From the IMG/VR virus record IMGVR_UViG_3300033145_001136, positions 1 through 64,000 of that record: DNA of 64,000 nt; one strand, 5' to 3'. Made by a program: the position numbers and the translations under genes. Shown piece after piece: positions 2,629-22,991 of this stretch. The notes beneath the pieces were generated by a model. That model was not told the origin of the DNA and made no database searches. It saw only the letters and a list, made by a program, of their open reading frames with translations. Source of the stretch: a virus. Position 1 is the first letter of the stretch. Each line of letters opens with the position of its first letter.

Positions 2629-3168
2629 CTACTTTGTAGCTGCATCTACTTGTATTGTAACTTTGTGACCCTTCTTAGATTCTCTTGCCGCACTTCCTTC
2701 ACGACTTACAACAGAACGTAGAGCATCTGTAAAGAGTTCACTAAACTTCCATCCATATCTATCTATGAATTTCTGTTTATCTTTATCATTTGGCGCGGTC
2801 ATAAGAATCTGCATCATACCAGGCGATGAATCCATAGATAGCTTAATCATTGAGATAAAATTATCGTCAGATACACCAGAAACTGGCATAGCGCCTTCAT
2901 ACGATTCTTGCAGTCCCTCTGCTATGATCATGTCCATAAGACTGGCGTCCTCACCAAGTGCTTCACGTATCTTCTTGGACATGCCGCCCTTTTTCTTCCG
3001 CTTATAATGCGCTATCGCAACTGCCCACGGATCTTTCGCTCCATCGCCCTTCGCTTTAATCCCTTCAGCCATCTTGGCTATGGAATTTGCGATAGATAGC
3101 GTAAGCCCATCCCCATACGCGTTTTTAATCCTAGCGGGAACCTTTCCTAATGAACTCCACGGCATCAT
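2629..3168 (-). CDS. Head-module protein with a ChaB-like N-terminal domain
   Basis: MPW....VP..IK...ANSIA..AE....DPWAVAIAHYK resembles ChaB-like domains found next to or fused with phage proteases. It carries IREA, LQES and ARES motifs. Confidence 0.45.
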   Translation of the reverse strand: MMPWSSLGKVPARIKNAYGDGLTLSIANSIAKMAEGIKAKGDGAKDPWAVAIAHYKRKKKGGMSKKIREALGEDASLMDMIIAEGLQESYEGAMPVSGVSDDNFISMIKLSMDSSPGMMQILMTAPNDKDKQKFIDRYGWKFSELFTDALRSVVSREGSAARESKKGHKVTIQVDAATK

Positions 3169-4873: not shown

Positions 4874-7800
4874 TTACATGTATTCTCTCAATACCTGCGC
4901 CATGGTCTGCTGTACATACGCCACAACCTCAGGATAAAAGGAGTCAGTAGCGGCATCCACCACTAGCGTACTTGCTATATCTTTATCTATCCATCCATAT
5001 TGTCTATGTGAGTGTCCATCCTCAATAATCTTATTAACATTCGCCAAAATACGTTTCGGATCGAACCTGGAAGTAAGCTGTCCAGATTCTGCATATTTAC
5101 GTACCACTTCTTCGATAATGGTTTGTGTATGCAACACTGTATTTGTATCTCTGGCTAAACTACCTCGTACTAATTGATCTGCCCTATCTGGCGTCCTTAG
5201 TTTAATTAACTTCTTTGCCCACAACGCTTCTCTATCTAATGCGTCTACAGCGATACGATTAATACCGGATGTGCGAAATACCCTCTGAAGCATACCAAAA
5301 CTTATATTATCACCTCGCGACAATAATTCCAACTCAAGTTCTGTTTTCAGTCGTCCAAAATCACGTACCATATACCGTAATTCTTGCTTATTCATCCCTT
5401 GTATCATGTCCTGCGGTACACCATTATCAATCAACAAATTCCAGAGTTTTGGCTCCGAAAGCTTATTTAATTCTTGATATTGATAATCTATCTTTTCATA
5501 TGGTGAACGTATCTTTATTAATGTTGGTTTACCCTCACGCACGAAACTCATCCGTATTGCCTTCGGAAGCTTACCCTGTGCAACCTTCCAATCACCTGCC
5601 GCCTGTCCAAGTCGAGCCTTTGAGATATTTGGTAATTTTTGCGCCAGCAATTCTGCGGCAAGTTTTTCCTTATTAGATTGCGAGAAAATGCGAGCTATCT
5701 GTTCATGATATAATGATCTCTCCCTATCCCTCAATATCTGTACTAGATCGCCAATTGGCAACTTATCCCAACCCGTAGCTGGCTCCGGAGTAGCCATTCT
5801 TGTCAATCTATCTATTACCTCTGGTTTGTTCATCCCCACTATAGCACGTGTTCGTTCCAAATATTTCTCTACCTCATGTGCCTTTGCCATAATAGCCATA
5901 TCAGTCAATGTGTATTCATTAATGCCGTACATTTCCCCAGTATCTGTGATTGCTACTGTGATGTCGTGCTTTTTACCAGCCACATATCTCGGCAAATTTG
6001 TGATCCTTGTTAATTCTGGATTCTCTGCAACCGGAATTTGTGTTTCATCTAAAATAGAACCAATTCTTCTGCCTATTAATTCCGTAAATTTCGGATCTAA
6101 TTCATCGAACAAACGTGCCTGCGCCTCAGGCGTCATGTTATGCCAGAGCCTATCAATTTGCTCATCAAACACATCTGCAAGAGCCCTACTCTGGTAATCA
6201 GCCCCAAATACCGGCAAGTCTATTTGTCCCTCTGTCCCTAATGCGCGACGCCTATGTGTTAACATCATCCGTAGCCCCTGATCACTAATCTCTTCGAGGC
6301 TTGGTTCATGCCCAGATACATATCCATCAGATATTTTAACCAGATAAGATCGCGCTTCTTCGTTTTGCTCCATGATTTCTTCCCAACCACGGAACTGTTG
6401 CTTGTGTGCCAAGCCAGAATCTAACGCAGCCTTCTTGTGTGTGAGTTGGCCCTTAAATCCTTCTGTAGTGGCGGATCTGGTGCCATTCCATATAACGTCC
6501 TCTATTTCATCTGGATTAGGAGTTCGTCCTAGAACACGTTTCAAATAATCATATATTCGATCTATCGCCTTTGCGCCTGTAAGGGTTTCCCCTGTATTTG
6601 TAATAATTATCGATTCAGCTTCCAATAGAGTAATTGCCGGGATAACGGGTACTTGCTCCGCTACTGCTATCGCTAAGGCATCAAAGGGATGTGGGGTCAT
6701 AATTGCCCTGACCCACGAGGTTGCTCCAGAATCATCAGCTACATCACGAGCCATATCAAATCCAGAATCACGCAACGCCATATGCATTGCTGTTTCTGGT
6801 GGGTTATCTTCCAAATATCTGACAAGATTTCCATATATTTCTTCTGTAAAGGGTAAATCGGGATATTTGTCAGTAAACATTTTGCTTGCTTTTTCAAATC
6901 CAACATCCTTGCTACCAAATCCGAATTTGTGTAGCCCGGTAACTGTTTGTAGTAACCTCTGCTTTAAATTTGTTACATTTGATGCCTGAGCCAACCTAAT
7001 AACATCTTCTACGGTTTGTGATGCAGGCGATCTGCCAGCACGCTCTAATATGCGTGATCTACTAGCAGGATTCATCAGCATTTCCTGTGCAATCTTAAAT
7101 GGATTTGGTACCTGTGGAATAACCGCTGGCCCAAACGGCAATTTGCGTAACACGGATCTAGTCAACATCTGTTTAGCATAGGTACGCAACGATTCTCTAC
7201 CCCATGCTTTACTATATTCTATAGCATAATCCTTAGTCATCGCCCCGGCTATACGTGCGGCTATACCGGCTTTCTGAAGTTTGTTTTTTCTATCTTCGGC
7301 TCCACCAAAAAGCCCCGACCTTAATGTAGCCGCCTTACTTGGTCCAAGTATATCATTTTGATCTCCAGGATTCTTCCTAATAGCCCAGGCAAGCCACTGG
7401 TGCGATACTTTATCACGCTCCTCTTCATCGTACATTCTATCCAAATCTTCCAGACCTATTATTCGGATAGGCTTCATTCTATGCTTCTTCGGTTCATAGG
7501 TTGGTACAATACGTGATAATTCGTCAATTTGTTTTGTATCTAGTCCAATTAAGCGAAGCTCATGTAGCGAAACCAATATACCAACATACAAACACCTACA
7601 CTGCGAATGTGCCGGTATAGCTGGTCTTGGCTCTTCGAGCAAATATGTCTTACCCGCTAATGATCTGCAATGTTGACATGTATTACCATCCAATATCGTG
7701 ATCCTCTTAACCTTCTCAAATACATCGTTATTCTGCTGGTAGAAATCCTCCAAAGCAAGGTTAGCTCCAGCATATGATATATCTTTGGCCAAAATCTCTG

Positions 7801-10800
7801 CTTGCATCCGTGGATTAATCCCCTTTACAAGCACTTTACCATCTTCTTGATCCATAAATGAACGAATCAAATCATCTATCGCTGTAGTAACTGCTTTACC
7901 ATCTTTAATATCGCGCTCTAATTTATCAACCATATCCAACACACTAAAGCCACGTTGAATTTCGATATTTTTCCAATATGTATCTACTGGCAACCCTGCA
8001 ATGTTAACGTAGTCATTAATCCTCGCAACGCGCGCCTCAAGAAGCTTTGGATCCACTGTAAGTCTAATACCCGGCAATAGAGCTTCAACGTCCTGGCCAT
8101 GTATCTTAGTTATCGCGCGATACATACGCCCCATCGCATCTTCTACAGACCCACTCATTCTAGCAGTTATTCCACCATCAATCCCTTTCGCAGTTGCCCG
8201 CACCCATCTTTTGCTCCATGGCTCTATCTTTGGCATATCGTATGCTATCCACCGTCTTGGTAGTTTTCCACCAAGCACATCAACTACGTCCTTTTTTAAT
8301 CTATCAAATGCCTGTATTGCTCGTAAATCTCTATACACTGCATCACCATATAATTCCGCAAATTCTACAAATGCTTGTATCTGCGCTTCCGTAAACGGCG
8401 ATAATGTTGCACGCAGAAGCTTTACCAATGACGACCAAGCTGGCTCCACAATCTCATCAAGCTTATTGATAGCATACATCATGCGAATAGCTAGCCATGT
8501 CTCTTTATCTGCTACCCGTGTTTTCTGGAGGCTATAATCTAATACAGCTTGTTCGCGTGCTCGTACTAATTCATCGATCCGTGCCCTTCTATCTGTTTCT
8601 GTATGTAGCCCAAATTTGGCCTCGTGCTTCTCTATAGATATGAACTCTTCTTCCAACAGTTTAATTTGTGCATCTATCGTCGCTAATCTTGATTGCATAC
8701 CATTAAGCTCATTAAAGAATTTCTTAATAGTATCTGTTTGAACCTTTATATCAGAAAACTTCGTATATCGTATATTGTTAACCCCCTTAATTTGCCATTG
8801 TGTCCAGCTAATTCCTGTTAAATGCTCAACATCATCTACAATAGATTTAGCCCATGTAGCCCACCACTGCTCAGGAGCCAATTCTCGCAAATCATTATAC
8901 CCACTTGCTATGCCGTGCTCGAGATCTTTAATCTGTTTTAAAATCGGTGCCTCACGTTTACTAAGCTTAGCTGTCTTGTTTTCAATCTCTCGTATCCTAT
9001 CTGGTGTGAGCCTAAACCTGGTCTTACCATAGTGCTTATCTATCCATACCTGCTCCTCTGCAATGTCATCCTGAATCGACATAAGTTGTTCTTGTAATTT
9101 GGCTAATTGTTGCATTTTACGAGTAATCTGTGTCTCAACTCTATCGTAAAGTTCTGGTCGTCGTTCTGCAGTAACAGATATCTGACGTAGTTTCTGTTCC
9201 AGGGTCATATCCGGATTCATGCGCCACATTGCCTTTGCACGTGGGGCAGACTTAGTCTCATAATCGATTACCCACTCACCAAGCTTATCATCGAACTTAA
9301 ATAATTTAAGGTCTACTACCGCATTATCTGGGGCCTGCAATCTACTCAAAAATTTAATGATGTCTTCATGAGTGCGCATTCTATGTTGCAGGCTGGCCAG
9401 CTCGTCATCTAAGCGGGCTCGGCTCGATGTTAGCAACTCGCGATATTTCTCATATGGATATGCCGCATATAATTCGTCACGCACAATAGTCATGCGCCTC
9501 GATAAACGATCAATATTTGATTCCAAACCACGCACTTCTTGTAATCTCTGTATTAGTTTCTCATACTCAATTAAGTTAACTTGCTTACTAGGCATGGCTC
9601 GAATCTCTTTTAATCGCGCCAGAATAGTGGCATGTTCGGATGATTCCACAAACTTGCCATATTTTGCCTGTGCTGTTGCAAGTTGCTCCCGTACCATGTG
9701 ATACTGTTTACGCATAGTCTCGTTGGACATCTTTTGGACACCACGCTCAAAGTCCAGATCATCCAATTGTTTATTTAAACTGGCAGTGGCCCTACGCATA
9801 GTTGGATCTTTAATCGGCTCTACCAGATGCTGTGTTTGCCTAAATACAAAGTCTGCCTCTACTCCCTGTGCCTGATAGCTCTTAACCCATTCTCTACGCA
9901 CCTTGTCCATGTTTTCTAGTGCATCTAGTAATCCCTTACCTTCTTCGTTTCTTGTTAAAACTGCACGCCACTTACTGACTTTATAAAATTCCTTCGCGTA
10001 GTCCGCACCAGGGTATTCATCCATAATAATATCTATCATTTCAGTTTTAGTTAATTTGTTTATACGTCCTCGTACCCGGCTAAGCATTCTGCGCTCATTA
10101 GTTTGTGGGTCCTTTGTAGTCTGTATAAATTTTTTCAACGTCTCCTTGCTCTCAACCTTAAGCATAACTTCGTATCCATATGGGTCTCCCTTAGTTACCC
10201 ATGTCATAATATCACGCGCTCGTTGCAATTGTTCTGGCCGTGCCACTGTTTTATATATATCTTGCACTTTCTTTACGCGCTCGATAGCACTTATGTATGC
10301 CCTACCTTCAACACTTAAGCCAATCCGCCGCACCCCTCGTTCCATCCCTGCCTTTGTAATCCTGGCAAAGGCGTTCTCTGAAAAACCGAACTGCCAACCC
10401 GTAGGTCGTAACAATGCTGACGCACCAACACTATCCCGTACACCTGGCAAATATTTTGGTACCAGCCAATCTCCATCTTTATAGAGAGATGCTAACACTC
10501 GCGGCCCACCTATAATGCTCTTACGATATGTCGGATGTGTTTGTACGCCGGCTGCATTTATGATATCATGTACAACCCGTAATTTACCATCTTCTGTAAG
10601 ATATAACTTAAACGTACCTATGGCATCTGTCTTTACAAATTGCTCTGTAACCAAACTTTTAACCTTCACTGGCCCAAGGTTTAATTGTAATTCACCCCGC
10701 ATTAATTTAAGTCCCCAGGCTTTAAGATCCTTCTCCGGTAAACGTATTAAATCACCAAGTAGCTTATCAGCTCTTGTGATTGATACAACTGTACCATGTA

Positions 10801-13800
10801 GTTTCTTAATAGGCGCGAGCATCAATTTGGAATACGCTGTATATTCCCGTACATTTAGTCTAGAGAAGAGCTTATTAAGCTGCGACAACAGTAAATCTTC
10901 ATCCATAAATATCCGGATGGCTCGTTCGTGAAATTGTTTACCACGCGTAGAAATCCCAACAAGCCCCAATATCCTACGTATTGTCCTTGCTGCCTGTCTT
11001 TGTTCTTCAGTTGTACGAAACAGCGACGTATTTGCAAATGCATCTTCTATCATTTTCTGAAACATCGAGGTGGCTGGATCTAATATACTAACAATGCTTC
11101 TACGTCGCATGGCCACAGGGGCCAGTTTCATTTCTGCTTCCAATAATTCTTTAGCTGACCGCAATCGCTTACGAGATAGACTAGTAGGTTCTATAATCTG
11201 CGCAACCATATGTTCTCTGCTAATTCGGCTAATATCAATTAAACTCTCGATTTCGGAAGCATCAAGTAATCTACTACTCATATCAAATATGGCAATGTTG
11301 TGCTTGCGCGCATACTCAAATATTTCTCTATCACTCATCCTTGCTAGTTGTGTTTCTGTCGGCAAGGTCTTTATTCGCCTATTAATAATCCGCAACATAG
11401 CGGCCTTACCATCTTCTGTAGACGAAATTTCTGAAAATAGGTTCTCGGCTCCCTCCCTTAATACTCGCGTATTAATTAACTCTGGATGTAAACGATCTTT
11501 TTGTATTTCCGCAAATGTTGCTTCCACCTTAGCTAACATAGTTCTTTTAATCTGCTTCTCTATGTCTCTACTTCCCAATTTTAATTTATTAAATGCGTCT
11601 CTGCTAATGCCACGCCCTATTGCTACCCGTTCGTCGCCTACTATTTCACCTATTTCATCCGCATAAAGAAGCAATTTCTTCATGTCGTCTGGGGCTACAT
11701 CGTCTTCAAATACCCTATATAATTTCTTTGTGAACCGCTCACGATCGGCCATGATTCTTTTAAGATTATCTTGTTCTATTTTAATGTCCGATTTTAGTTT
11801 CGCAACTGTGGCTTTAGTTGTACTATCTGGTGCATCCTGTATGTACCGAGCCATTTGTGCTTTAGTCTCAGCAATTGTTTCATTAATAAGCTGTATGTCC
11901 CTATCATGCGTAGCTAGTTGTATTATGTCATCTCGCAATGTTTGCCATTTAATTATGCGCTGGATTTCTGATCTACCCATAAGATCTTCTACAAAATCTT
12001 TCGGAGACAATTGTACAAGATTGTCCACCAACATCAATCGCGCTACGATCTCCTCGTCCAGAAGCTGGACTAGATTTGCCTCAATAGTCTTATCATTAAT
12101 GCGTCTCATGCCCGCAATAAGACGATTCTTCTCTATCCCATATGCCCTAGAATGCTCCTGGAAATTATCCAATATGCTGATATAGTAGTTATGTGGTGCG
12201 AATAATTCGTCCTCCAATAATAGTAGTAACGCCTGCTGCTGTCTGAATATGTCAGTACCGTCTTGTATTTTCGTCAACATACTTTGTGTATAATCAAGCA
12301 TCTTACCTTGTAAGGCCGGTTTATCTATTTTCTCCACATATGTACGAAGTGCCTTAATACGCTGATCTAGTTGTAAAACTATGCGCTGTTGTAAAAGTTG
12401 TAATTCACCAATGTCTTTAACAGGGATTAATTTACGTGCAATTAATTCATCCAAATCACCAACAATAGCCGTAGAATCTGCTGTTAGCTTAGCCCGTAAT
12501 TCAGTAATTTTACTAACGTCCGCTGTTTTTGCTATGTCGTCCAGTATAATCAAAACATCTGTTTTTAGTGTATCTAGTGTAACCGTACGAACTGCATTTA
12601 TCCGCTTAACAATTTCTGTACGTAACTCCCGCTCTTTCTTTAGGGCATTAAATTTTTTAAGTAGCTGTTCAACACCAGCAAAATCTTGCTTAGCATATGC
12701 ATATCGTATTTGCCTAGATAAACGATCTAGTTTATTAAAGTGTGGCTCAATTACCTCATCCACCAACCCTCGAAGATCTCCACGCGTAAGCAATTGGATA
12801 GATTTCTTCCATTTGCCGATATCTTGCTTCCATTTATCCTTTATCGCATCCATATTACGTAAAGCGTGCCATTGCACCATAGATGCACGGAATTTTTCAT
12901 ATGCTAATGCTGGCATGGTCTCCACAGCGATTGTTTCTGCAACCGGAATATCGACCCCGAGATCAATTAATGCCGCAACCGTATCCTTAAGCGATAATTT
13001 TGAACTAATATCATGCGATTGCGCCAAGCGATCGATAACACGTTTCTGCAACACATCCGTTACAACTACCTCACGCCGCATCGCCGAAAAATGTTCCAAA
13101 TCTACAAAACGGATGGCGCTCCGAAATTCTGCGAGATTTGTCGAAAGATCTGCCGCTAATGCCGATCTGAGCTCGAGCAATGAGATTTGCTCTAGGCCAC
13201 GAATCGTCGAAATCCCCGACCGCCCCGCCATCACCCGAATCTGAAAATCATCCAGCTCCGCCAATACGGCCTTCAGATCATCTACTCCCATCCGATTTAG
13301 TGCCGAGGTTCGCTGCGGCATAATGTCAAAGAAATCAAACCCACTATCTATAAGATCTTCAATATGTGCTTGCACCGCAATGTCTGGGACTGTTTTTAAA
13401 GCTCCTCGTAATTTCCCGAGTTTTATAAATCGCTCTGGTAGTTTTGTAATGCGCCAATCATACCACGCTTGTCTAAGTTTATTCTGTACTACGATCCGTT
13501 GTTCAGCTATGGCTTTTTCAAATGCGTAATCTTTGTGTAACCCTTGTGCTATCGCTAATTTATGTTCCATAAATGGGTCAAACTTGATGCGAATCTGTTT
13601 TGTTCTCGGCTCGTACTTCTTGACAAATACACCAGTTTCCTTATCATATACAGAATGTGGTTGTGCCCTCCAGTATTTGGTGGGCATAGTATTGGCGGTA
13701 CGATCAAGCACACGTGTAAATTCTAGCAAGTCTTGAGAAGTAGTTGCTTTCGGATCGACAATCGACATATCAACAATATCATAGATGTGTGAAGGCAAAT

Positions 13801-16800
13801 CTTTTGGCGAGTATTTATAAGCTGGTACAGGACGAAGCAACGCTATTTTCGGACGTCGCTCATATTTTGGTACAGGGCGCACATCACCAGACACTGCTGG
13901 TTCATATATTTCATCCAAAAGAAATCCGCTAATCTTTGCTTCTGCGCTCGCAAACCCCACCCCACGCTCTGAAAATCTTTCTATCAACCCAGTTCTGCTG
14001 CGGAATTTCGGATCTTTCAGGATTCGTGCGATACGTTCCTTATCCTTATCTGCCAAAAATAAATCATATACCAAATGCTGGTCATCTTTGCCAAGTATAG
14101 CCAATGCGCCAATATCAGGCGGATTCGTTGGCCCCAATACCAATAACCCATTTAACTGCTCAATTGGCATCTTGTTCAATTTTTGAATCGGAATTTCTGG
14201 ATAAGCCAAGCGCGCTTTCGCAAGTAAAAACTGATAACGATGCCCAGTCAAGTTTTTCGACCGTACAAATCCAACTCGTTTTGACAACTGCTCTTGAACT
14301 CGCGCATCTTCAGCAGTAAATATCAGGTCTGAAAACGCCAATATCTCATCCTGTACAGATTTATATGTATCTACAAGAACGTTGTCGATAGCTGTCCGAT
14401 ATTCATGAATCGCAATGTCTACTTCTTCTGGCGTAGCAAATGTACCCCCGTATGTAATTAGTGGCTGTGTTTTTCGCACAATCTCCGATTGAAGAACAAC
14501 AGACATTTTTGGAGTAGGCCTAATCCCTTCTCCAGGAACCGCATCGTAGAAAATGTCTGCGGATTCATAAAATTTTAGTGTACCATCTGAGAAAGGGCCA
14601 TGTTTCTTAGTAAGTATATCATCTTCTAAACGATATCTGTCTTTTCCAAGGATTGGTTCGTGACTATATCTATCCGGTATATAGTGTTCAAATTCTGTTT
14701 CGACAATCATTTTAACACCATGATTGATTTTATCACCATCATATGTTAGATACGGACTTCGCTCTATATCTGAATATTCCGTAGTAGCGCTCAACCGTTT
14801 CATAACTTGATCTAACTTATCTTCTGCTTCACGTACGTCTGCCCACGCAGCACCGCCAGTATCTCGTGCAATATTGGTTAACCTCTGCACCTCCTGATGT
14901 ATAGTCTGCATCTGGTCCCGTAATTCTTTTTCAATAATATAGCTTGGACCAGTACCAAAATTAAATTCCTGCCTCGCTACCACCTCTGCCTCATGCAACA
15001 TCTTACCAAATAAATCCGGATTCTGTCCTGGTTGCCGCTCAGCAAGTGCAGCAATTCTATAATCTACCCTGGGACCGGGGCCATCGTCAGGAAACATGAA
15101 GAATGCAGATTGCGCACCTTCCGGCAACACTGGAATCCCATATTTCTCTATCATGCTATAATGCATACCTAATGGCGCTGTGCTCTGGATTTCTGGTTTA
15201 CCCAAAATCGTAGTAACTAATTCATCAGCTATATTGCGCCATTCATATGGGACTCTGACTGTACGAACATCATCAGGGGCATACGCAATCACCATATAAG
15301 CTGGTCTAACTGCCTCTGCATTAGTACGTGGTGCTCGTACCCCATCCACAAACATATCCATAGGGCGATTAGCCATTTCGATGCTACGTTCTATCTCTAT
15401 AACTGCATCGTTAAGTATTTGCTTTGATCTGGCCTGTGCTTCAACCAATGGCCCTAACTGATGATCAACTATTCTGGCATAATCCATCTGTGGACCAAAT
15501 GGATCTGGCGATGCGCCGAGTAATTGTATTGCCTGATCTACCGCCTCTTTATATTCGGGCGTATGTGGCGCAAGTATGCTTATACGTTCCATTATCACAC
15601 CGACCTCATCTAAAACACTCGCTGCCTCCTCTCTACGTAGCCGTAGATCTGCTTGTAAAGCTTCTAATCGCGTCAATACAGTCTGTCTACGTAGCTCATT
15701 ACGCCCGGCAGAAACCTCGCGTAACCTGGCTGCGTCCGCAAATGCAGATACTGTTTCTATTGGAATGCCACGATATAGTTGGTATGAGTCCGATGCCTTA
15801 GTTACTAGTTTATTTATGTGACTACGTTCTGTCTGTGTCTCAGAGATTAGTCGTTTTGTATTGAGAATCTCTGAATTCACTATCCGCGATTTATCTTCTA
15901 TTGCAATCAACCTATTTTTATACCGCGCCATATCTCGTAATTCTGGCTGTGCTTCAAATTTTGCCAATATTTCTGCGCGCTCATTAATTAAGTTTGTTAG
16001 TTCGTCTTCTGCGCTAGCTAATTCGGTCTGTGCCAATTGTAATCGCGAATCAAGCGCTGCCCCCTGCTCTGTGATTTCGTCAAGATTGTCTTTAAGACGA
16101 GTGGCATCCTCTAACATTTGTACACCAGCAACTCGCTCCGATACCTCTTGTCTCTTATTAACGGTAGTTACAATTGTATCCCAAAAATCACGCTCTACTG
16201 CAGCGACTTCATGCTTAAGTTCCCATTCATCAAGCGCAATGTGTAATTCCTTTAACTTTATTGGATCTTTTTCAATTGCAATTTGGTGTTGTAGTTCAGT
16301 AATTTTCTCCGATGCTCTAATATAGATGTTTAGCGGCCCTGCCTCCGGATCTGTTAGCCTACTCTGTATTAGCTCCCGCGTAATTGGTGTATTGGTTGAC
16401 CTAGCCCTACGCACCATGTCCTTAAATACTACTTCTCGTTGATCAAGAAGTCGGTTTTCTAATTGACGCCATCGAATAAGTAATTCCTGCTTAACTTGTG
16501 GTCTTGTTTCTAATGCCATCGCTGCTTGTACGGTCTTAAATTCGTGATATGTGGGCCGCACCAAGGTTTCAAGACGATATCTTGCCTCTTCAAACAATCC
16601 TTCCATATGAATATCGTCTAATCTTCGATATTTAATTTCTAATCCCTCATCTGCCTCATTTATAATACGATTGAATCTATCTACTAAATAAGTATGTCGC
16701 TGAGCAATATGGTCATGTACACTAGGTACGGTCTCCCCACCAATGTTAAGCCTGCCTAATGGGCCATCCGGGATCTCATTAATCCATATGGATTCTGCAA

Positions 16801-19174
16801 GTGATACCTGGCGTGCCGCAGCTTCTGGAATAATACGAGTCCGTACCATCTTGTCATCAACATAATGTGCAAGGTGTAATTCTGGAATATAATCTATGTC
16901 CGATAATATCAATATCTGTTCATGAACCGGTATTTTCGTATCGCGTAGTTCCTTAGCCAATAATTCAGACACCACAATCTTCCCATGCCCCTCTACTTCA
17001 CGCAATATGCGCCATTCTTTATTGAATTGTATGCGCACAAGCCGTTCATACTCTTCCCGCGTAACGGCTCTCCATTCCTCTTTCTTCATCGGATCGAGTT
17101 TATATCCAAGATTTCTGAGCCGTCGCTGGATTTCTACCTGCCGTTTTTCAATCTTAACAAGCTGCCGTTCTTCAGGAACTGTTAAGTCAATCACGCCAAC
17201 CCGCAATTGCTCTCTAAATGGTTCTGCTTCTATGTCCAGATTTAAAAATTCGTTGTTCATGTCTGCAAGCACACCACGAAATGCATCCGGGTCGACCGGA
17301 AACATCTTAGCCCCTTCAACCTCTTCAAGTGCATTAAACGCCACATCTATTGCTTCTTGTGACTTAATAATTGATGCATAATAATGCCCATTTGCCATTG
17401 ATATCGACAAATCCGAAGCATCCGTGATAACGTCACGAACTTTTTTGAACTCTTCAAGTGTGATAACGTCTATTTCATAACGAAGCTGCATTAACATATG
17501 TTCAAGTTTGCTAATATATGTTGGTGATGTCGCCTTTGATAAAGCACGCTCAACCTTTACGATGTCTGTCTCAGTATCTGCTACCCGAGACGCCCATACT
17601 AGCATCATTTGTTTTGCATCTGCCTCTGGTAGGATCTTTGTATTGGCCTCCATAACTTTTTGCATCACTGCAGTTCTATCTCGCACTGATACAAACTGTG
17701 TTTTCAAATTATCAATTTTATCTGGTTCTACACCGGCACGTATCAGTAATTCTAAGTCGTGTAGTCTAGCATCTTTTGTAGTATATGTATGTTCTACAAC
17801 CATGATTTCTGGTTTATTATCGAAACGCCCAACGCCCAGCATATTTCCATGTGCGTGTGCGTGCCTATATGTAGATGGCTCACGCGCAGCAACATCCGCA
17901 AATGGGGCAATAGATACACGCCTATCCGCTGGACTTACTTTCTTATTTACTTCCAATTCTTCTATACGTGCGCTTAGTAGCGCACGTTCATTCTCTATTG
18001 CTTCTGATGCCATATCTGTAATGCGTGACGGATCTAGGCCAAATTCAGAAGCGATCCTATTCACATCTTTTTCTGCGACCAACTGCTCAAATAATTTTAA
18101 TCGTTTCTTAGTATTGCTCAATGCAGGTTCGTAATGTTTTGCCCCAAGTGCGATGATCTCATCTGTTGTTGATAAGTCGTCTATTCGATCACGTAACTGC
18201 GCAATGTGCAAGTTTAGAAATTCATTATTTACATCCACGGCTGCAATATTAAATTCTTGCAATTGTTGTCTGGCAAGTTTAAGTTGCCCCTTATCAAAAG
18301 CTTGCTCTTTTATAGCAACGACAGAATCCAGACGCTCTTGTAAAGCCCTACGCCAATCCTGTCTTATGCGCTCAATCGTGATATGTTGGAATGAAGCCCA
18401 TTTCGAAGTGTGTAACACCTGTACATGTTGTAATTTACCATAATCACGCGCCATTTTATATACCGTATCACTAAGATCCTGTACTGACGCATGTCCTTTC
18501 TTACCTCTAATTCTGTATGCAAGTTCAGTCTCCTCGTTCACCGCACCAAAAAAACGATCGTAGTTACCCTCGAGAAATGCCGTGTCCGCATCTTTAATAT
18601 ACTCGTATACATCATCATAGTGCCCGTTATCTGTAACAAAAGCAATTTTACTTCCCCTATACTCCATAATAAATCCAACGGGTTCGGCAACATCGTGAGA
18701 CACAACAATCGGCCTAACCACAAATTCATTATTAAGTGTAGGGATTTTTTCATATCCCTTCGTACCAGTCTTGCGAATCTTTCTGTATGGCCCCAGCCGT
18801 TCCGCCTGCTCAGGTTTTAAATTTATAAATGTCCCATCGGTAGCATGTACAATTGGCACACGTAAACCAGCTTCTGCATGGGCCTCCTGTATGCTAATAA
18901 TGCTACGGATATGATCGGAGTGTTCGTGTGTAACCCAAATGGCCTGGAGCTGTGATTCTACTATCTTTCCTCGTTCAAGCCGGATCACACCTTCTTGTTG
19001 AAGCTTACGTTTCAATACATTAGGAGAAATGCCCGCATCTATTAAAACATATCCTTCCCTTGGAATTCTAATTAACATAGCATTACCAGAAGAGGAAGAT
19101 CCCAGAGACCTAAATAAAATATGGGTATTCTTTAGCTCTTCCTTAGATACTATCCGACTTGGAGGACTAGGCAT
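4874..19174 (-). CDS. Giant 4766-aa MuF (SPP1 gp7-like) minor head protein with an N-terminal MBL-fold metallohydrolase
   Basis: Residues ~20-260 carry SLGSSSSGN, LIDAG, THEHSDH, SHD, TDNGH, LEGNYD, GHAS and LHTS (YycJ/WalJ-type MBL). Around residues 3820-3950 are LDGNTCQHCRSLAG...PAIPAHSQCRC and W......DQNDILGPSKAATLRSG (MuF signature). The gene lies directly downstream of the portal, the canonical MuF position. Confidence 0.8.
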   Translation of the reverse strand: MPSPPSRIVSKEELKNTHILFRSLGSSSSGNAMLIRIPREGYVLIDAGISPNVLKRKLQQEGVIRLERGKIVESQLQAIWVTHEHSDHIRSIISIQEAHAEAGLRVPIVHATDGTFINLKPEQAERLGPYRKIRKTGTKGYEKIPTLNNEFVVRPIVVSHDVAEPVGFIMEYRGSKIAFVTDNGHYDDVYEYIKDADTAFLEGNYDRFFGAVNEETELAYRIRGKKGHASVQDLSDTVYKMARDYGKLQHVQVLHTSKWASFQHITIERIRQDWRRALQERLDSVVAIKEQAFDKGQLKLARQQLQEFNIAAVDVNNEFLNLHIAQLRDRIDDLSTTDEIIALGAKHYEPALSNTKKRLKLFEQLVAEKDVNRIASEFGLDPSRITDMASEAIENERALLSARIEELEVNKKVSPADRRVSIAPFADVAAREPSTYRHAHAHGNMLGVGRFDNKPEIMVVEHTYTTKDARLHDLELLIRAGVEPDKIDNLKTQFVSVRDRTAVMQKVMEANTKILPEADAKQMMLVWASRVADTETDIVKVERALSKATSPTYISKLEHMLMQLRYEIDVITLEEFKKVRDVITDASDLSISMANGHYYASIIKSQEAIDVAFNALEEVEGAKMFPVDPDAFRGVLADMNNEFLNLDIEAEPFREQLRVGVIDLTVPEERQLVKIEKRQVEIQRRLRNLGYKLDPMKKEEWRAVTREEYERLVRIQFNKEWRILREVEGHGKIVVSELLAKELRDTKIPVHEQILILSDIDYIPELHLAHYVDDKMVRTRIIPEAAARQVSLAESIWINEIPDGPLGRLNIGGETVPSVHDHIAQRHTYLVDRFNRIINEADEGLEIKYRRLDDIHMEGLFEEARYRLETLVRPTYHEFKTVQAAMALETRPQVKQELLIRWRQLENRLLDQREVVFKDMVRRARSTNTPITRELIQSRLTDPEAGPLNIYIRASEKITELQHQIAIEKDPIKLKELHIALDEWELKHEVAAVERDFWDTIVTTVNKRQEVSERVAGVQMLEDATRLKDNLDEITEQGAALDSRLQLAQTELASAEDELTNLINERAEILAKFEAQPELRDMARYKNRLIAIEDKSRIVNSEILNTKRLISETQTERSHINKLVTKASDSYQLYRGIPIETVSAFADAARLREVSAGRNELRRQTVLTRLEALQADLRLRREEAASVLDEVGVIMERISILAPHTPEYKEAVDQAIQLLGASPDPFGPQMDYARIVDHQLGPLVEAQARSKQILNDAVIEIERSIEMANRPMDMFVDGVRAPRTNAEAVRPAYMVIAYAPDDVRTVRVPYEWRNIADELVTTILGKPEIQSTAPLGMHYSMIEKYGIPVLPEGAQSAFFMFPDDGPGPRVDYRIAALAERQPGQNPDLFGKMLHEAEVVARQEFNFGTGPSYIIEKELRDQMQTIHQEVQRLTNIARDTGGAAWADVREAEDKLDQVMKRLSATTEYSDIERSPYLTYDGDKINHGVKMIVETEFEHYIPDRYSHEPILGKDRYRLEDDILTKKHGPFSDGTLKFYESADIFYDAVPGEGIRPTPKMSVVLQSEIVRKTQPLITYGGTFATPEEVDIAIHEYRTAIDNVLVDTYKSVQDEILAFSDLIFTAEDARVQEQLSKRVGFVRSKNLTGHRYQFLLAKARLAYPEIPIQKLNKMPIEQLNGLLVLGPTNPPDIGALAILGKDDQHLVYDLFLADKDKERIARILKDPKFRSRTGLIERFSERGVGFASAEAKISGFLLDEIYEPAVSGDVRPVPKYERRPKIALLRPVPAYKYSPKDLPSHIYDIVDMSIVDPKATTSQDLLEFTRVLDRTANTMPTKYWRAQPHSVYDKETGVFVKKYEPRTKQIRIKFDPFMEHKLAIAQGLHKDYAFEKAIAEQRIVVQNKLRQAWYDWRITKLPERFIKLGKLRGALKTVPDIAVQAHIEDLIDSGFDFFDIMPQRTSALNRMGVDDLKAVLAELDDFQIRVMAGRSGISTIRGLEQISLLELRSALAADLSTNLAEFRSAIRFVDLEHFSAMRREVVVTDVLQKRVIDRLAQSHDISSKLSLKDTVAALIDLGVDIPVAETIAVETMPALAYEKFRASMVQWHALRNMDAIKDKWKQDIGKWKKSIQLLTRGDLRGLVDEVIEPHFNKLDRLSRQIRYAYAKQDFAGVEQLLKKFNALKKERELRTEIVKRINAVRTVTLDTLKTDVLIILDDIAKTADVSKITELRAKLTADSTAIVGDLDELIARKLIPVKDIGELQLLQQRIVLQLDQRIKALRTYVEKIDKPALQGKMLDYTQSMLTKIQDGTDIFRQQQALLLLLEDELFAPHNYYISILDNFQEHSRAYGIEKNRLIAGMRRINDKTIEANLVQLLDEEIVARLMLVDNLVQLSPKDFVEDLMGRSEIQRIIKWQTLRDDIIQLATHDRDIQLINETIAETKAQMARYIQDAPDSTTKATVAKLKSDIKIEQDNLKRIMADRERFTKKLYRVFEDDVAPDDMKKLLLYADEIGEIVGDERVAIGRGISRDAFNKLKLGSRDIEKQIKRTMLAKVEATFAEIQKDRLHPELINTRVLREGAENLFSEISSTEDGKAAMLRIINRRIKTLPTETQLARMSDREIFEYARKHNIAIFDMSSRLLDASEIESLIDISRISREHMVAQIIEPTSLSRKRLRSAKELLEAEMKLAPVAMRRRSIVSILDPATSMFQKMIEDAFANTSLFRTTEEQRQAARTIRRILGLVGISTRGKQFHERAIRIFMDEDLLLSQLNKLFSRLNVREYTAYSKLMLAPIKKLHGTVVSITRADKLLGDLIRLPEKDLKAWGLKLMRGELQLNLGPVKVKSLVTEQFVKTDAIGTFKLYLTEDGKLRVVHDIINAAGVQTHPTYRKSIIGGPRVLASLYKDGDWLVPKYLPGVRDSVGASALLRPTGWQFGFSENAFARITKAGMERGVRRIGLSVEGRAYISAIERVKKVQDIYKTVARPEQLQRARDIMTWVTKGDPYGYEVMLKVESKETLKKFIQTTKDPQTNERRMLSRVRGRINKLTKTEMIDIIMDEYPGADYAKEFYKVSKWRAVLTRNEEGKGLLDALENMDKVRREWVKSYQAQGVEADFVFRQTQHLVEPIKDPTMRRATASLNKQLDDLDFERGVQKMSNETMRKQYHMVREQLATAQAKYGKFVESSEHATILARLKEIRAMPSKQVNLIEYEKLIQRLQEVRGLESNIDRLSRRMTIVRDELYAAYPYEKYRELLTSSRARLDDELASLQHRMRTHEDIIKFLSRLQAPDNAVVDLKLFKFDDKLGEWVIDYETKSAPRAKAMWRMNPDMTLEQKLRQISVTAERRPELYDRVETQITRKMQQLAKLQEQLMSIQDDIAEEQVWIDKHYGKTRFRLTPDRIREIENKTAKLSKREAPILKQIKDLEHGIASGYNDLRELAPEQWWATWAKSIVDDVEHLTGISWTQWQIKGVNNIRYTKFSDIKVQTDTIKKFFNELNGMQSRLATIDAQIKLLEEEFISIEKHEAKFGLHTETDRRARIDELVRAREQAVLDYSLQKTRVADKETWLAIRMMYAINKLDEIVEPAWSSLVKLLRATLSPFTEAQIQAFVEFAELYGDAVYRDLRAIQAFDRLKKDVVDVLGGKLPRRWIAYDMPKIEPWSKRWVRATAKGIDGGITARMSGSVEDAMGRMYRAITKIHGQDVEALLPGIRLTVDPKLLEARVARINDYVNIAGLPVDTYWKNIEIQRGFSVLDMVDKLERDIKDGKAVTTAIDDLIRSFMDQEDGKVLVKGINPRMQAEILAKDISYAGANLALEDFYQQNNDVFEKVKRITILDGNTCQHCRSLAGKTYLLEEPRPAIPAHSQCRCLYVGILVSLHELRLIGLDTKQIDELSRIVPTYEPKKHRMKPIRIIGLEDLDRMYDEEERDKVSHQWLAWAIRKNPGDQNDILGPSKAATLRSGLFGGAEDRKNKLQKAGIAARIAGAMTKDYAIEYSKAWGRESLRTYAKQMLTRSVLRKLPFGPAVIPQVPNPFKIAQEMLMNPASRSRILERAGRSPASQTVEDVIRLAQASNVTNLKQRLLQTVTGLHKFGFGSKDVGFEKASKMFTDKYPDLPFTEEIYGNLVRYLEDNPPETAMHMALRDSGFDMARDVADDSGATSWVRAIMTPHPFDALAIAVAEQVPVIPAITLLEAESIIITNTGETLTGAKAIDRIYDYLKRVLGRTPNPDEIEDVIWNGTRSATTEGFKGQLTHKKAALDSGLAHKQQFRGWEEIMEQNEEARSYLVKISDGYVSGHEPSLEEISDQGLRMMLTHRRRALGTEGQIDLPVFGADYQSRALADVFDEQIDRLWHNMTPEAQARLFDELDPKFTELIGRRIGSILDETQIPVAENPELTRITNLPRYVAGKKHDITVAITDTGEMYGINEYTLTDMAIMAKAHEVEKYLERTRAIVGMNKPEVIDRLTRMATPEPATGWDKLPIGDLVQILRDRERSLYHEQIARIFSQSNKEKLAAELLAQKLPNISKARLGQAAGDWKVAQGKLPKAIRMSFVREGKPTLIKIRSPYEKIDYQYQELNKLSEPKLWNLLIDNGVPQDMIQGMNKQELRYMVRDFGRLKTELELELLSRGDNISFGMLQRVFRTSGINRIAVDALDREALWAKKLIKLRTPDRADQLVRGSLARDTNTVLHTQTIIEEVVRKYAESGQLTSRFDPKRILANVNKIIEDGHSHRQYGWIDKDIASTLVVDAATDSFYPEVVAYVQQTMAQVLREYM

Positions 19175-21086
19175 CCAGTTTCTCTATATTCTTCTTCGCA
19201 ATAGCGAATATGCCAGAATCAATACCACCAATTAGTTCAGCCTCTGATAAAACCTGACTAAACCGTCGTGCCCGCTGTGTCAATGATTCCTGCTGTACCG
19301 ATTCCTTTAGGGGCTTTTTGCCCGTCCCTGTTTCCGCAGTAGCCATTGCCAATTCTGCCTCAGTTCTACGCATTGATATTTCTGAACCAAGCTGTAGCAA
19401 CGGATCAACATCCTGCATGGTCGCAGGGGCTCTAGGTAACGAACGTAAATGCTGCCCGGAAGGCACAGAACCGGAAGCGGAAAGTCCAGATAACGCCACC
19501 TGCGACTTCATGAGCTGCGCAAGTTCTACACCCTGCTCCTGCTCTATAAGCCTTGTCTCAGTGTTGTGATCCTGTCCAAGTATTGTCCTACCAGTCTGCT
19601 TCGAAGTCATCCGCGTCTCTACTAGTTGTGTAACCGCAGTAACCAATTCTGTAAATGACTCATCGTCAAGCCGTGGGAACTTAATCTGTAACATATTAAA
19701 TATATTTCGTTGCGTTGGTACTGGGTTACCTTCTTTATCATATATCATAACCTCCCACATTAGTGGAATATCGCGATAAGCTAGCGCCGCATATAATGGT
19801 ACTCTCATCATTCCCCTGTATCCGTACTGCCATAGATCCTGCCACGCTTCCATCATCTTAATAAAAGAGAATTTGGTAGCCTTTGCAGATGAGAAATTGC
19901 CATGCTCAATATTACCAGTTACCATAAATTCTGGTAAATCTGTGCCAGCAGTAGTTTGCAAATTAACTGCTCTAAGATCTGCTTCTGCATCGCCTGCATT
20001 GATTTGTGGAGTCGGATAACTAATTGTTACCGCACTTGAATGAACCTTAACTGTGCCTGGTCTTGGCTGATTTCTGTATTTTTGGGCCTCTGCTAGTACT
20101 TCATCTTTATCTCCCTCCACTGAAACATCCATCACATATGCCGTACGTGCCTTGTTCAATGTGACACGATTCTGCAGAAGCTGCTTATATTGTTTCATCC
20201 AGTATAATACTGAATGTAATGTGGGCATACCTCTACGCCTACGCGCCGCAGTTGGGGCTTTGAAATGGAATATGAATGATACCCACTCATTATTTGGAGC
20301 CAGTGATCCTTCTAGCCATGTTTCATCAAAATTCTTAACAGATGCGATTGCTACCTCTAGCATACGCTGATTTATCATCCCTCTGTCTGTAATAACATCT
20401 ACGCTGGGAATTAATTCGGTGCGCTCATCCCCGGAGTGTGCAACGGTATCACCATCCTGCTGTATTTTCGGTTTCCATTTTCTCTTATATAATACCACCG
20501 AGTCCTCATCACCGGGGAGAGTGATAAATCCCTTAATTTCTTCTGGGATGACCGATCGAATAGTAACATCCCCATTAATCGTATTTATCCAAAACCGCCA
20601 AAAATTTTCACCATCTAACTGAAACTGATTTGCGGACTCGACCAGGAATATTGGTAGCTTGTTATCCCATCGATCCCAAAATCTTTCTGCAACATCCTGG
20701 ATTAGAATCTCGTCTGACTTTGGCCGTACGCCTCTACCAGTCACGAATTTCGTATACGTAGACACAACTCGCTTTGCTTGCGGATTAAATCTCCATGCCT
20801 GCCACGAACCTCGCACTATTTTAAAATGATCGACATCAGATATTTGTCGCCCGGTTACAATTGCACTACCCGATGCATCTGACCATCCAACGTCCTCCAT
20901 GGACATTGATTGCAAATGCGATTCTGCAGACTCCCTGAGTAAGACTTCTCGATCATATGCTATTTCCTTAAGCAACATAAGCTGATCATTCAGTCTTTGC
21001 ATTTCCACAGATTTGCTTTCCTGCAATTCATCTAGTTCTGCCTTACGTACTAATCCGACTCTTTCCAGAATGTTCATTTTCGTCAC
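19167..21086 (-). CDS. Portal protein
   Basis: 639 aa directly after TerL. Motifs NPQAKRVV...FVTGRG, QLDGENF, RRRGMPTL, AGTDLPEFMVTG...NFSSA and IKFP. The start is probably ATG 21077 after an AGGTGA RBS. Confidence 0.85.
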   Translation of the reverse strand: MTKMNILERVGLVRKAELDELQESKSVEMQRLNDQLMLLKEIAYDREVLLRESAESHLQSMSMEDVGWSDASGSAIVTGRQISDVDHFKIVRGSWQAWRFNPQAKRVVSTYTKFVTGRGVRPKSDEILIQDVAERFWDRWDNKLPIFLVESANQFQLDGENFWRFWINTINGDVTIRSVIPEEIKGFITLPGDEDSVVLYKRKWKPKIQQDGDTVAHSGDERTELIPSVDVITDRGMINQRMLEVAIASVKNFDETWLEGSLAPNNEWVSFIFHFKAPTAARRRRGMPTLHSVLYWMKQYKQLLQNRVTLNKARTAYVMDVSVEGDKDEVLAEAQKYRNQPRPGTVKVHSSAVTISYPTPQINAGDAEADLRAVNLQTTAGTDLPEFMVTGNIEHGNFSSAKATKFSFIKMMEAWQDLWQYGYRGMMRVPLYAALAYRDIPLMWEVMIYDKEGNPVPTQRNIFNMLQIKFPRLDDESFTELVTAVTQLVETRMTSKQTGRTILGQDHNTETRLIEQEQGVELAQLMKSQVALSGLSASGSVPSGQHLRSLPRAPATMQDVDPLLQLGSEISMRRTEAELAMATAETGTGKKPLKESVQQESLTQRARRFSQVLSEAELIGGIDSGIFAIAKKNIEKLDA

Positions 21087-21090
21087 CTAT

Positions 21091-21249
21091 TTAAGGTTTA
21101 TAGCGATTATTCCTGACCTCTTCGCTGAAACGCGAAAGCGATCGACACTTTTTATTGCAATATAGCTTTTGGTCAAAGTGATAGTTGCTGAAGCAATCTT
21201 CTCGTTTTATTTCAGCTCCACAATATTTACACTGCTTAACAGAAACCAT
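21091..21249 (-). CDS. Small zinc-finger protein (52 aa)
   Basis: Below the ORF-track cutoff: MVSVKQCKYCGAEIKREDCFSNYHFDQKLYCNKKCRSLSRFSEEVRNNRYKP*. Its ATG overlaps the terL stop (TAATG) and it fills the terL-portal gap. Confidence 0.7.
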   Translation of the reverse strand: MVSVKQCKYCGAEIKREDCFSNYHFDQKLYCNKKCRSLSRFSEEVRNNRYKP

Positions 21250-22991
21250 TAGTATCCGCCATCTTCTTCCATATCATAATGCCCATGCCACGCAGGTGTA
21301 GTCAATTCGTCTTCTCCACCATATGTAGATATATCATCGTGTTCCCCACCATACCCACCATCTTCTGGTACAACATCATGGTCCATTCCACCTGGATCAT
21401 CCGCTGTATATGGTCGTACAACAGCTATGTCATCTGCAAACCCACATATGAAAGCATCGAATGGATGATCTGTTTTTGTCTTAACCACTTTCTTAGACTT
21501 CGGATCTCTACGAGACGACTTTATTGCTTTGATAAGTTTCTTATATTTAAGATCTACTCTAATTGCTCGTTTTTCTAACTGATTGATTACCGCAGAAATA
21601 CAAATCTCTTTTTCTTGCCCAAAATCCACTGTACGTACATCAAACCCCAGCTTTTCTAACCGCGCATTCTCAAACGGGTGTGACGAATCAGCATATATCT
21701 TATTAGTACCGTATTCGAGCTTAGCAGCTTTGAGATATGTGTATATACCCTCTACTTCTTCTGTGAAATATTTTGTAGCAATAACTTCATGTAATCCATT
21801 ATCCCAGATTTGCCATACTTGTATCGCGGTCTCACCAGAAAAACCCCAGTCAACTTGGAATCTACGTTTTGTTTTGTGTGTGATCTCTGGTTGTACCATA
21901 CCTATGACATCTGTAATAGCTTCCTCTAATAGTGCTGTATCAAATGTCCTGGACTCTCCACCAGGACGTAATCCCATAATCTCAACTTCAAACCAAGATT
22001 CTGGCTTGTTTTCATAATACCATTTGATACGAGAAATCTTTAACCAACCACCATCACAATCTCGAGCTTTACGTCTGATACGCGATCGACAGTCTACACA
22101 ATATATAGCATGTGCATCTGAATCTGCTTTTATTGGAAATTGATTCGCTGGATACTCCTTATCAATCCCATATTTGTCTTTACATTTACAACTCCAACCA
22201 CAATATTTTTCTGTAAATTTTTTATAACAATCTTCGCATTTGTCCGTACATGGCTCGCACACATCAAATGCATCCCATTGCACCTTCATGTATTCAAATT
22301 TTACTTCTTCAGCTTCGTTATCCCATAATTCCTGAAATGGTCCAGAAACCTGGTTGAATGTCGACAACAACATTGATACCATTACACCCGCAGTATCTAT
22401 CATTGGTAAGGCCGCAAACATAACATCCTCGTCTACCAGCGCAGCCTCATCTATTACTATAACACCAACCGCCTTGCGTTCACCACCAGGGTGAGGCCCA
22501 CGCACCTGTTTCTCTGAGCACGCTACCGATGTAATATATGGTGTAGGTGGCTTGCCTTTCTTACACGTATATGACATTAGTGATCGGTCAACTTCACGCT
22601 CTACCGCTTCGTCATTATATATGTATGCTCTTAAATATTGATACACGATCTTTGCTTGCTCTTCCGACCCCCCACTATTAATTGTATCTGCATCTAGAAA
22701 ATACCAAAAAGAAAATTCTATGCAAGAAGTCAATTTGGATTTGCCACCACCACGCGGCGCTGTCATCATTATGTGGGTGTCAATCCCGGCTTTGACCCTA
22801 TCATATATGTATATAAATATTTGTCTTAATTTAGGCGGAAAATGCGTATCATGTCTTTTAGCAAAATAGGCTATTGGATCATTATAGTAAGCCACTTTTA
22901 CATCGTGTGCTGGTAATATTTCTCTAGCTAATGCATCAGCATCAAGAATTAGTTCAGAATTCTCTTCGTCCCAACTATTGTTTGATCTCAT
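21249..22991 (-). CDS. terL: Terminase large subunit
   Basis: Walker A APRGGGKS, QAKIVY, Walker B VIVIDEAA, coupling motif LST, and nuclease motifs VDWG, YADSS and DHPFDA. Confidence 0.92.
   Translation of the reverse strand: MRSNNSWDEENSELILDADALAREILPAHDVKVAYYNDPIAYFAKRHDTHFPPKLRQIFIYIYDRVKAGIDTHIMMTAPRGGGKSKLTSCIEFSFWYFLDADTINSGGSEEQAKIVYQYLRAYIYNDEAVEREVDRSLMSYTCKKGKPPTPYITSVACSEKQVRGPHPGGERKAVGVIVIDEAALVDEDVMFAALPMIDTAGVMVSMLLSTFNQVSGPFQELWDNEAEEVKFEYMKVQWDAFDVCEPCTDKCEDCYKKFTEKYCGWSCKCKDKYGIDKEYPANQFPIKADSDAHAIYCVDCRSRIRRKARDCDGGWLKISRIKWYYENKPESWFEVEIMGLRPGGESRTFDTALLEEAITDVIGMVQPEITHKTKRRFQVDWGFSGETAIQVWQIWDNGLHEVIATKYFTEEVEGIYTYLKAAKLEYGTNKIYADSSHPFENARLEKLGFDVRTVDFGQEKEICISAVINQLEKRAIRVDLKYKKLIKAIKSSRRDPKSKKVVKTKTDHPFDAFICGFADDIAVVRPYTADDPGGMDHDVVPEDGGYGGEHDDISTYGGEDELTTPAWHGHYDMEEDGGY

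Follow-up and report, generated by a model that had tools for sequence, protein, structure and literature searches.

The subject of this report is a giant open reading frame (ORF) in the first 64 kb (hereafter, the window) of the virus record IMGVR_UViG_3300033145_001136 from IMG/VR, a record of 102,947 bp that is classed as linear and ~66% complete. Located directly after the portal gene, the ORF encodes a protein of 4,766 amino acids (aa) that combines an N-terminal metallo-β-lactamase (MBL)-fold hydrolase domain with a module of the MuF/SPP1 gp7 type placed late in the chain. We regard it as almost certain that this is a real gene with MBL and MuF modules in a head operon. The interpretation that we favor, with moderate confidence, is that it represents the phage's minor head protein of the MuF (SPP1 gp7) type, enlarged to 4,766 residues, which is packaged and delivered with a DNA-acting enzyme. 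The constituent claims differ in strength: by analogy with SPP1 gp7 and from its cysteine pattern, the protein is likely to be present in the particle, and its delivery, with the enzyme acting in the host, is a nearly balanced matter that inclines slightly to the negative. The features of the giant ORF are as follows (P0020 is a homologue described below).

4874..19174, minus strand: giant ORF, 4766 aa, 545.6 kDa, pI 7.0, with an ATG start and its stop codon at 4874-4876
18377..19114, minus strand: MBL-fold hydrolase domain, aa 21-266, from Pfam and PHROG matches
8300..18376, minus strand: orphan body, aa 267-3625, without a family match, cysteine-free and rich in helix-forming residues
13871..15349, minus strand: conserved island 1, aa 1276-1768, richer in Gly and Pro and colinear with residues 1280-1750 of P0020
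10361..10921, minus strand: conserved island 2, aa 2752-2938, weakly similar to the colinear residues 2814-3001 of P0020 (E 0.011)
7310..8299, minus strand: complete MuF/SPP1-gp7-like module, aa 3626-3955 (approximate), from PHROG matches, homologues, the extent of the local hidden Markov model (HMM) match and BFVD structures
7592..7690, minus strand: MuF zinc-ribbon-like motif D..TCxxC...P.H..CRC, aa 3829-3861, with C3833, C3836, C3859 and C3861
4877..7309, minus strand: C-terminal region, aa 3956-4766 (~811 residues), predicted to be helical, with P0020 homology at least to aa 4369
5339..5506, minus strand: candidate small helix-extended-helix (SAP/Rho-N-like) module, aa 4557-4612, from AlphaFold (predicted local distance difference test [pLDDT] 84-88) and VIA-align

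The ATG at 19174 overlaps the portal stop codon (19167-19169) by 8 nucleotides (nt), and from it the frame runs uninterrupted for 4,766 codons, just as a preliminary description of this stretch, made by reading the sequence without database searches, had reported. A random frame at 42% GC would carry ~0.06 stops per codon, and 4,766 open codons would arise by chance with a calculated probability of ~e^-294; the longest ORF in the other five frames over 4874..19174 is 287 aa. Over the ORF and the sequence on either side of it, GC content stays at 0.41-0.43 and GC skew is flat, and promoter-like or terminator-like sites within it show no excess over shuffled sequence. The ORF makes up 14% of the sequenced genome.

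Profile searches place the MuF module in the PHROG families phrog_241 ("head morphogenesis"; E 6.5e-16) and phrog_115 ("minor head protein"; E 6.9e-10), and its cysteine motif lies at aa 3829-3861 (nt 7592-7690), where the preliminary description had seen it. Searching 1.84 billion representative proteins with aa 3650-4766 by phmmer, we recovered 319 matches, nearly all of them to ordinary MuF proteins of ~350 aa. An alignment of 41 sequences, composed of the query segment and 40 chosen best phmmer hits, shows that C3836, P3854, H3856 and R3860 are invariant and C3859 nearly so; PF04233 is present in 39 of these sequences (best E 3.3e-18). For the MuF module, translated searches (tblastn) recovered a portal-adjacent morphogenesis protein of 397 aa from Pseudomonas phage PaMx74, the MuF gene of which likewise comes directly after that of the portal, along with minor head proteins of Xanthomonas phages. 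Across the 103-kb record, the giant ORF is the only match to PF04233.

Structure prediction points in the same direction. An AlphaFold model of aa 3567-4766, built with MuF homologues, has pLDDT values of 77-94 in the MuF core, and a Foldseek search of BFVD with this MuF model, itself the product of the MuF alignment, gave 81 matches at E <= 1e-3, mostly annotated as "minor capsid protein" or "head morphogenesis" and headed by a MuF-ADP-ribosyltransferase of 1,192 aa from Xanthomonas phage Xp12. The HMM and structural support for MuF that the preliminary description had proposed to seek is thus supplied by the two PHROG families and the BFVD models, with the Pfam and NCBIfam models falling short of their cut-offs (see below). 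No solved MuF structure was found, either by sequence search with the MuF profile or by fold. A complex prediction for the portal and the MuF module scored 0.00, which amounts to no verdict and counts neither for nor against an interaction.

The N-terminal hydrolase announced in the preliminary description is equally borne out by profile searches. The domain exceeds the Pfam cut-offs for both PF12706 (E 1.8e-12, 47.7 bits against a cut-off of 27; 54.2 bits in a six-frame search) and PF00753 (35.5 bits against 22.7) and matches phrog_392, "metal-dependent hydrolase," over aa 21-266 (E 5.5e-26). Its metal-ligand motifs are complete, namely, HxHxDH at H83-H88, H160, D182 and H228/H255. Since H83, H85, D87, H88, H160 and D182 are invariant, and H228 nearly so, in an alignment of the giant with 13 stand-alone phage relatives, the active site looks intact; all of these ligands, including H255, are also kept in P0020. 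The giant ORF is the only match to PF12706 in the record, which has no stand-alone copy. When the N-terminal 300 aa alone were compared with the sequences of solved structures, no match was retrieved.

The genomic contexts of the stand-alone relatives provide a clue to the activity of this domain. These proteins, which are 210-390 aa long in IMG/VR and share 25-34% identity across the whole MBL domain, are found in recombination modules. In Paenibacillus phage phiERICV and Cellulophaga phage phi19:3, the relative comes directly after the Bet/RecT gene within the replication-recombination module, and a RecT-family recombinase lies immediately upstream in 6 of the 10 IMG/VR loci tested (E 1e-32 to 1e-40); over all loci examined, a phrog_392-type stand-alone MBL gene is directly downstream of RecT/Bet in 8 of 12. 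We note that the stand-alone phrog_392-type hydrolases resemble in this respect the exonuclease partner of a recombinase; the pairing of RecT/Bet with an MBL hydrolase is not named in the literature searched. Because the relatives occupy the exonuclease-partner position behind RecT/Bet, a single-strand annealing protein, the MBL domain of the giant is probably of the DNA exonuclease type and most likely descends from such an enzyme.

The distribution of cysteine further distinguishes the giant protein. Its only four cysteines (C3833, C3836, C3859 and C3861) are those of the CxxC...CxC motif of MuF, and the remaining 4,762 residues contain none, against ~75 expected from the 1.57% average over the other 87 ORFs of the record (P ~2e-33). 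Zero cysteine is also characteristic of the portal, the three small ORFs downstream of the giant gene and the scaffold/protease-like ORF (1167-4828 and 19167-21086); the cysteine content of the terminase large subunit (TerL) is 2.6%, and that of the replication enzymes is 0.8-1.5%. This zero-cysteine set may mark the proteins that end up inside the particle. The lack of cysteine would, in addition, be compatible with a protein that has to stay free of cross-links while traversing a narrow channel.

Three other giant proteins occur among the phmmer matches, P0020 (5,204 aa), P0033 (5,741 aa) and P0082 (5,912 aa), and in all three, the cysteines are likewise confined to the MuF motif. Of the 149 other MuF matches listed, the MuF core is preceded by more than 400 residues in only four. 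P0020 is a distant colinear homologue of the giant protein, with four matching segments.

Giant 2-255 to P0020 47-323: MBL segment, E 1e-12
Giant 1276-1768 to P0020 1280-1750: middle, island 1 segment, E 4e-4
Giant 2752-2938 to P0020 2814-3001: middle, island 2 segment, E 0.011
Giant 3526-4369 to P0020 3957-4826: MuF and tail segment, E 3e-31

Run-level assemblies contain P0020 in four variants, one or two residues apart, on a total of 10 contigs that reach 64 kb in length. P0033 and P0082, which share 47% identity, have their MuF module at ~85% of the length behind a long unmatched N-terminal body. No MBL domain was found in either of them, and profile-profile comparison with the pair formed by the giant and P0020 revealed no detectable homology outside MuF. 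A short motif at approximately aa 1335-1400, within island 1 of the giant, has weak matches in both. Judged from these comparisons, giant late-MuF proteins exist in at least two lineages.

A word-indexed protein database yielded no relative of similar length and, among shorter proteins, none for aa 271-3700; 50,697 phage records contained no DNA match to the giant gene. Scans of IMG/VR with the giant protein, with peptide patterns specific to it and with the nearest relative of the portal uncovered no giant relative, a scan of JGI metagenomes with that portal relative found nothing, and a scan of IMG/VR with an alignment of the giant and P0020 retrieved only stand-alone MBL genes.

Roughly 4,170 residues of the giant are orphan sequence, ~3,360 of them between the MBL and MuF domains. 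Neither aa 267-3625 nor aa 3956-4766 has a match in Pfam, PHROGs or NCBIfam; the whole protein matches no sequence of a solved structure, and the ESM Atlas offered no usable look-alike for aa 1200-1900 or 3955-4766. Internal repeats or a regular periodicity were not found in the protein. The view of the preliminary description that this sequence is mostly helical or coiled coil, which could be checked only weakly, is plausible: helix-forming residues make up 48% of the protein, many 200-residue bins contain only 4-6% Gly plus Pro, and an AlphaFold model of aa 1201-2400 made without an alignment consists only of helix and coil (at pLDDT 37, it was not used for claims about fold). A crude heptad score picks out 6% of the residues (~0.6% in shuffled sequences), chiefly near aa 1000-1200 and 3200-3600. 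Islands richer in Gly and Pro are seen at about aa 1200-1800, 2800-3000 and 3600-4400.

After the MuF module, we count ~811 residues where ~850 had been estimated. The AlphaFold model of this region is helical throughout and includes a single confident small unit at aa 4557-4612. In VIA-align, this unit is similar to the N-terminal domain of Rho, to SAP domains and to the C terminus of T4 endonuclease VII (Z 5.4-7.0; 44-54 residues superposed with root-mean-square deviations of 1.1-2.3). The Z scores are below the safe level, and we offer a SAP/Rho-N-type nucleic-acid-binding motif as a lead only; Rho-N is listed among the domains of polyvalent proteins (PMC5512222). This lead apart, VIA-align of the C-terminal model gave only generic helical matches with Z < 8, and Foldseek against the PDB gave nothing at E <= 1e-3. 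An HPRG tag was not found in the giant protein.

The head gene neighborhood of the giant ORF has the order TerL, portal, giant ORF, three small ORFs, scaffold/protease-like protein, decoration protein and capsid protein.

21249..22991, minus strand: TerL, by profile match
19167..21086, minus strand: portal gene, 639 aa (phrog_10963, E 2.4e-29; PF05136)
1167-2525: scaffold/protease-like ORF, 452 aa, by profile match
3-791: major capsid gene fragment, cut by the contig end

The three small ORFs, which lie directly downstream of the giant gene and encode 225, 328 and 179 aa, have no assignment. The contig begins within the major capsid gene, and the record, estimated to be ~66% complete, has no tail genes. 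Separate parts of one and the same 893-position PHROG, phrog_29592, are matched by the scaffold/protease-like ORF (1167-2525) and by the capsid fragment (3-791), the latter of which is also similar to fusion families labeled "major head and protease"; relatives seem to carry protease/scaffold and capsid protein in a single chain, whereas here the two are split and a decoration gene intervenes. A tblastn search of the 50,697 phage records at E <= 1e-5 gave no match for the portal, which has only two relatives, both distant (23-24% identity), among 5.8 billion proteins. As far as these comparisons go, the head module is far from those of cultured phages. Elsewhere in the window are genes for a Pol III alpha-type DNA polymerase, a primase-helicase, a ribonucleotide reductase and an SbcC-like protein, and the source looks like a large phage with replication genes of its own and an apparently lytic lifestyle. 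The ORF for the ribonucleotide reductase large subunit (window positions 51376-56343; 1,655 aa) matches the reductase in two stretches and, near aa 1004-1107 and 1382-1421, shows short additional similarities to unrelated families, which suggests one or more inserted elements, possibly inteins.

On the basis of these observations, the following mechanism can be conceived. In SPP1, strong binding to the portal carries a few copies of gp7 into the procapsid (PMC6316719). While the procapsid is being assembled, the MuF module of the giant protein would dock on the portal ring in the manner of SPP1 gp7 on gp6, and because of this docking, a few copies would come to be enclosed in the capsid. The cysteine-free, mostly helical body might be suited both to survival outside cells and to passage, in an extended form, through the portal and tail channel at infection, so that the protein would leave the capsid together with the DNA. 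The N-terminal enzyme could then act in the newly infected cell ahead of any phage gene expression. Its activity would most likely be that of a DNA-end exonuclease, which may resect the ends of the incoming genome or attack host DNA; a cyclic-nucleotide phosphodiesterase is the second option. Two further ideas of the preliminary description gained nothing from the analysis. For processing into several effectors, a single enzyme domain was detected and [L/I]xE[A/S] sites show no enrichment (11 seen versus 8.8 +/- 2.7 expected), and for the proposed ejection conduit, no transmembrane-like segment was found in the protein.

Several points weigh against our interpretation. The giant protein is a singleton from a single contig, and the phage is uncultured. 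We infer packaging, copy number, ejection and the direction of exit, and the case for portal anchoring, packaging and delivery is drawn from the SPP1 gp7 analogy (PMC6316719) together with the cysteine pattern. Low cysteine is common to the neighboring head proteins as well and, as such, indicates a virion location generally rather than translocation specifically. The Pfam and NCBIfam models hit the right place but below their curated cut-offs (PF04233, 20.1-24.7 bits versus 29.6; TIGR01641, 26.3 bits versus 39.65; E 1e-3 to 2e-6), and because these cut-offs are not reached, we state that the giant contains a diverged MuF module rather than that it is a typical MuF protein. The helical content of the body is deduced from composition and low-confidence models. 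RecT, the usual partner of the MBL relatives, was not found in the 103-kb record. Finally, a profile of the MBL domain and its phage relatives matches, at similar E-values, solved structures from the nucleic-acid/phosphodiester branch of MBL enzymes, among them a glyoxalase II-like chain, Apyc1, RNase J, 6KNS (which we take to be B. subtilis YhfI) and RNase Z.

This last result bears on a variant of the packaged-and-delivered scheme in which the MBL domain is an Apyc1/YhfI-like class II phosphodiesterase that destroys the cyclic-nucleotide immune signals of Pycsar or CBASS systems as the DNA enters. Apyc1, an MBL enzyme of phage origin, has cCMP and cUMP as its substrates (PMC9117128), and the profile retrieves its structures 7T28, 7U2S and 7U2R (E 9e-10 to 3e-7), as well as 6KNS (E 5e-9). 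However, the Apyc1 matches extend over only the first ~55 residues, around HxHxDH, because of which the search of solved structures does not single out one substrate; chains of the RNase J, RNase Z and glyoxalase II-like types score equally, and the closest phage relatives are linked to RecT, pointing to a DNA substrate. This variant strikes us as distinctly improbable. A different alternative does away with delivery: the giant would be an internal structural or assembly protein of the head, such as a portal-anchored capsid core, an inner body or a size-setting scaffold, with the MBL nuclease acting in the producer cell or within the capsid, its targets being, for instance, DNA ends in the course of packaging or afterwards. 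Its position in the head module, the MuF module, the long helix-rich orphan sequence without a further enzyme signature, the DNA-exonuclease type of enzyme indicated by the gene context of its relatives and the virion-type cysteine pattern would all be accommodated. Nevertheless, SPP1 particles can assemble without gp7, the role of which lies at the onset of infection, with only ~25% of the virions that lack it being infectious (PMC6316719); furthermore, the head module has a separate scaffold/protease-like gene at 1167-2525, and the giant has neither the repeats or periodicity of a ruler-like protein nor more than a 6% heptad-like fraction. We consider this alternative unlikely.

A C-terminal extension is also the position in which MuF toxin domains are found (PMC6316719, PMC5512222), raising the prospect of a polymorphic-toxin-type protein with its toxin within the 811 residues after MuF. 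Yet this extension has no toxin or other family match, is predicted to be helical and is conserved with P0020 rather than polymorphic; moreover, MuF is not N-terminal in the giant, and the source seems to be a large lytic phage that has its own replication genes, all of which makes a toxin very improbable. As for an in-frame fusion of several genes by mis-assembly, the occurrence of the giant protein as a singleton on one metagenomic contig would permit it, but 14.3 kb without a stop, uniform GC content and skew and an absence of cysteine that runs along the entire length, the MuF motif aside, speak against it. The distant homologue P0020 has the identical order of segments, and because it is colinear on 10 independent contigs, a chimeric assembly of this layout is very unlikely; we give artifact almost no credence. 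A MuF-anchored head protein that is packaged and delivered with a DNA-acting enzyme remains our preferred reading.

The interest of the giant protein lies in the extreme to which it takes the current view of MuF as a handle for loading cargo into phage heads: it accounts for 14% of the sequenced genome, has its enzyme N-terminal to MuF and combines over 4,000 residues of orphan sequence with an extreme lack of cysteine. That two or more unrelated giant-MuF lineages share a late MuF and the cysteine pattern suggests a common physical constraint, which might be extracellular existence or transit through the tail channel. If delivered with the DNA, the protein would be a pre-made nuclease or anti-signaling weapon; if not, its body may be a new kind of capsid-internal structure. 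Both modules, the MBL domain with ~270 aa and MuF with ~330 aa, are of a size suited to expression and assay. In its boldest form, which we think quite unlikely, the hypothesis would be of a ~0.5-MDa cysteine-free thread that is stored in the capsid, held by the portal and fed through the tail, bringing in a RecT-type MBL exonuclease or an Apyc1-like phosphodiesterase before phage expression; this would constitute an undescribed delivery route and, perhaps, a wider class of giant MuF proteins with differing N-terminal cargo.

How the giant protein relates to known systems can be summarized in terms of module, size and enzyme. With SPP1 gp7 and Mu gpF (PF04233, TIGR01641) it shares the TCxxC...P.H..CRC module, a gene placed after that of the portal and a predicted fold that matches predicted MuF structures, but it is ~13 times longer than the usual ~350 aa, and its MuF module sits at 76-83% of the length rather than filling the protein. 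Prophages load toxins into heads by fusing them behind MuF (PMC6316719); in contrast to such MuF polymorphic toxins, with an N-terminal MuF and a variable C-terminal toxin, the giant has a late MuF with the enzyme on its N-terminal side. The RecT/Bet-linked MBL hydrolases (phrog_392, annotated as "YycJ-like") resemble its N-terminal domain in a profile match over the full domain with all metal ligands, the difference being that this domain is fused to a head protein instead of standing alone behind RecT/Bet. Like P0033 and P0082, the giant has a late MuF, cysteines only in the MuF motif and a long unmatched N-terminal body; unlike them, it carries an MBL domain. The N4-type virion RNA polymerase, which has ~3,500 aa and is encapsidated and ejected (PMC13434306), provides a precedent for a giant capsid-stored protein that is expelled into the host, although the two have no sequence relation, polymerase motifs were not found in the giant, and the head-gene context differs.

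A conceptual parallel may be drawn with the polyvalent proteins of phages (Iyer, Burroughs, Anand, de Souza, Aravind 2017; PMC5512222), in which MuF is a hub domain and which are predicted to be packaged and delivered with the DNA. They too are very large and encoded in the late or virion gene block and combine MuF with an enzyme. The several effectors typical of them are not seen here: Pfam, PHROGs and NCBIfam detect only MBL and MuF in the giant, with one enzyme domain and, in Pfam, no metallopeptidase, ART, SNF2 or methylase; further differences are the ~4,170 orphan residues and the MBL domain itself, which goes unmentioned in that work (PMC5512222). The preliminary description had not recognized the architecture from described phages, and this impression stands for the exact layout of MBL, long orphan body and late MuF, no description of which was found in the literature searched. 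It does not extend to the principle, since MuF as a capsid-targeting module fused to enzymes and polyvalent proteins of >2,000 aa were described in 2017 (PMC5512222). Taken together, the domain architecture and these comparisons indicate that the giant protein is a new form of MuF-anchored head cargo or polyvalent protein.

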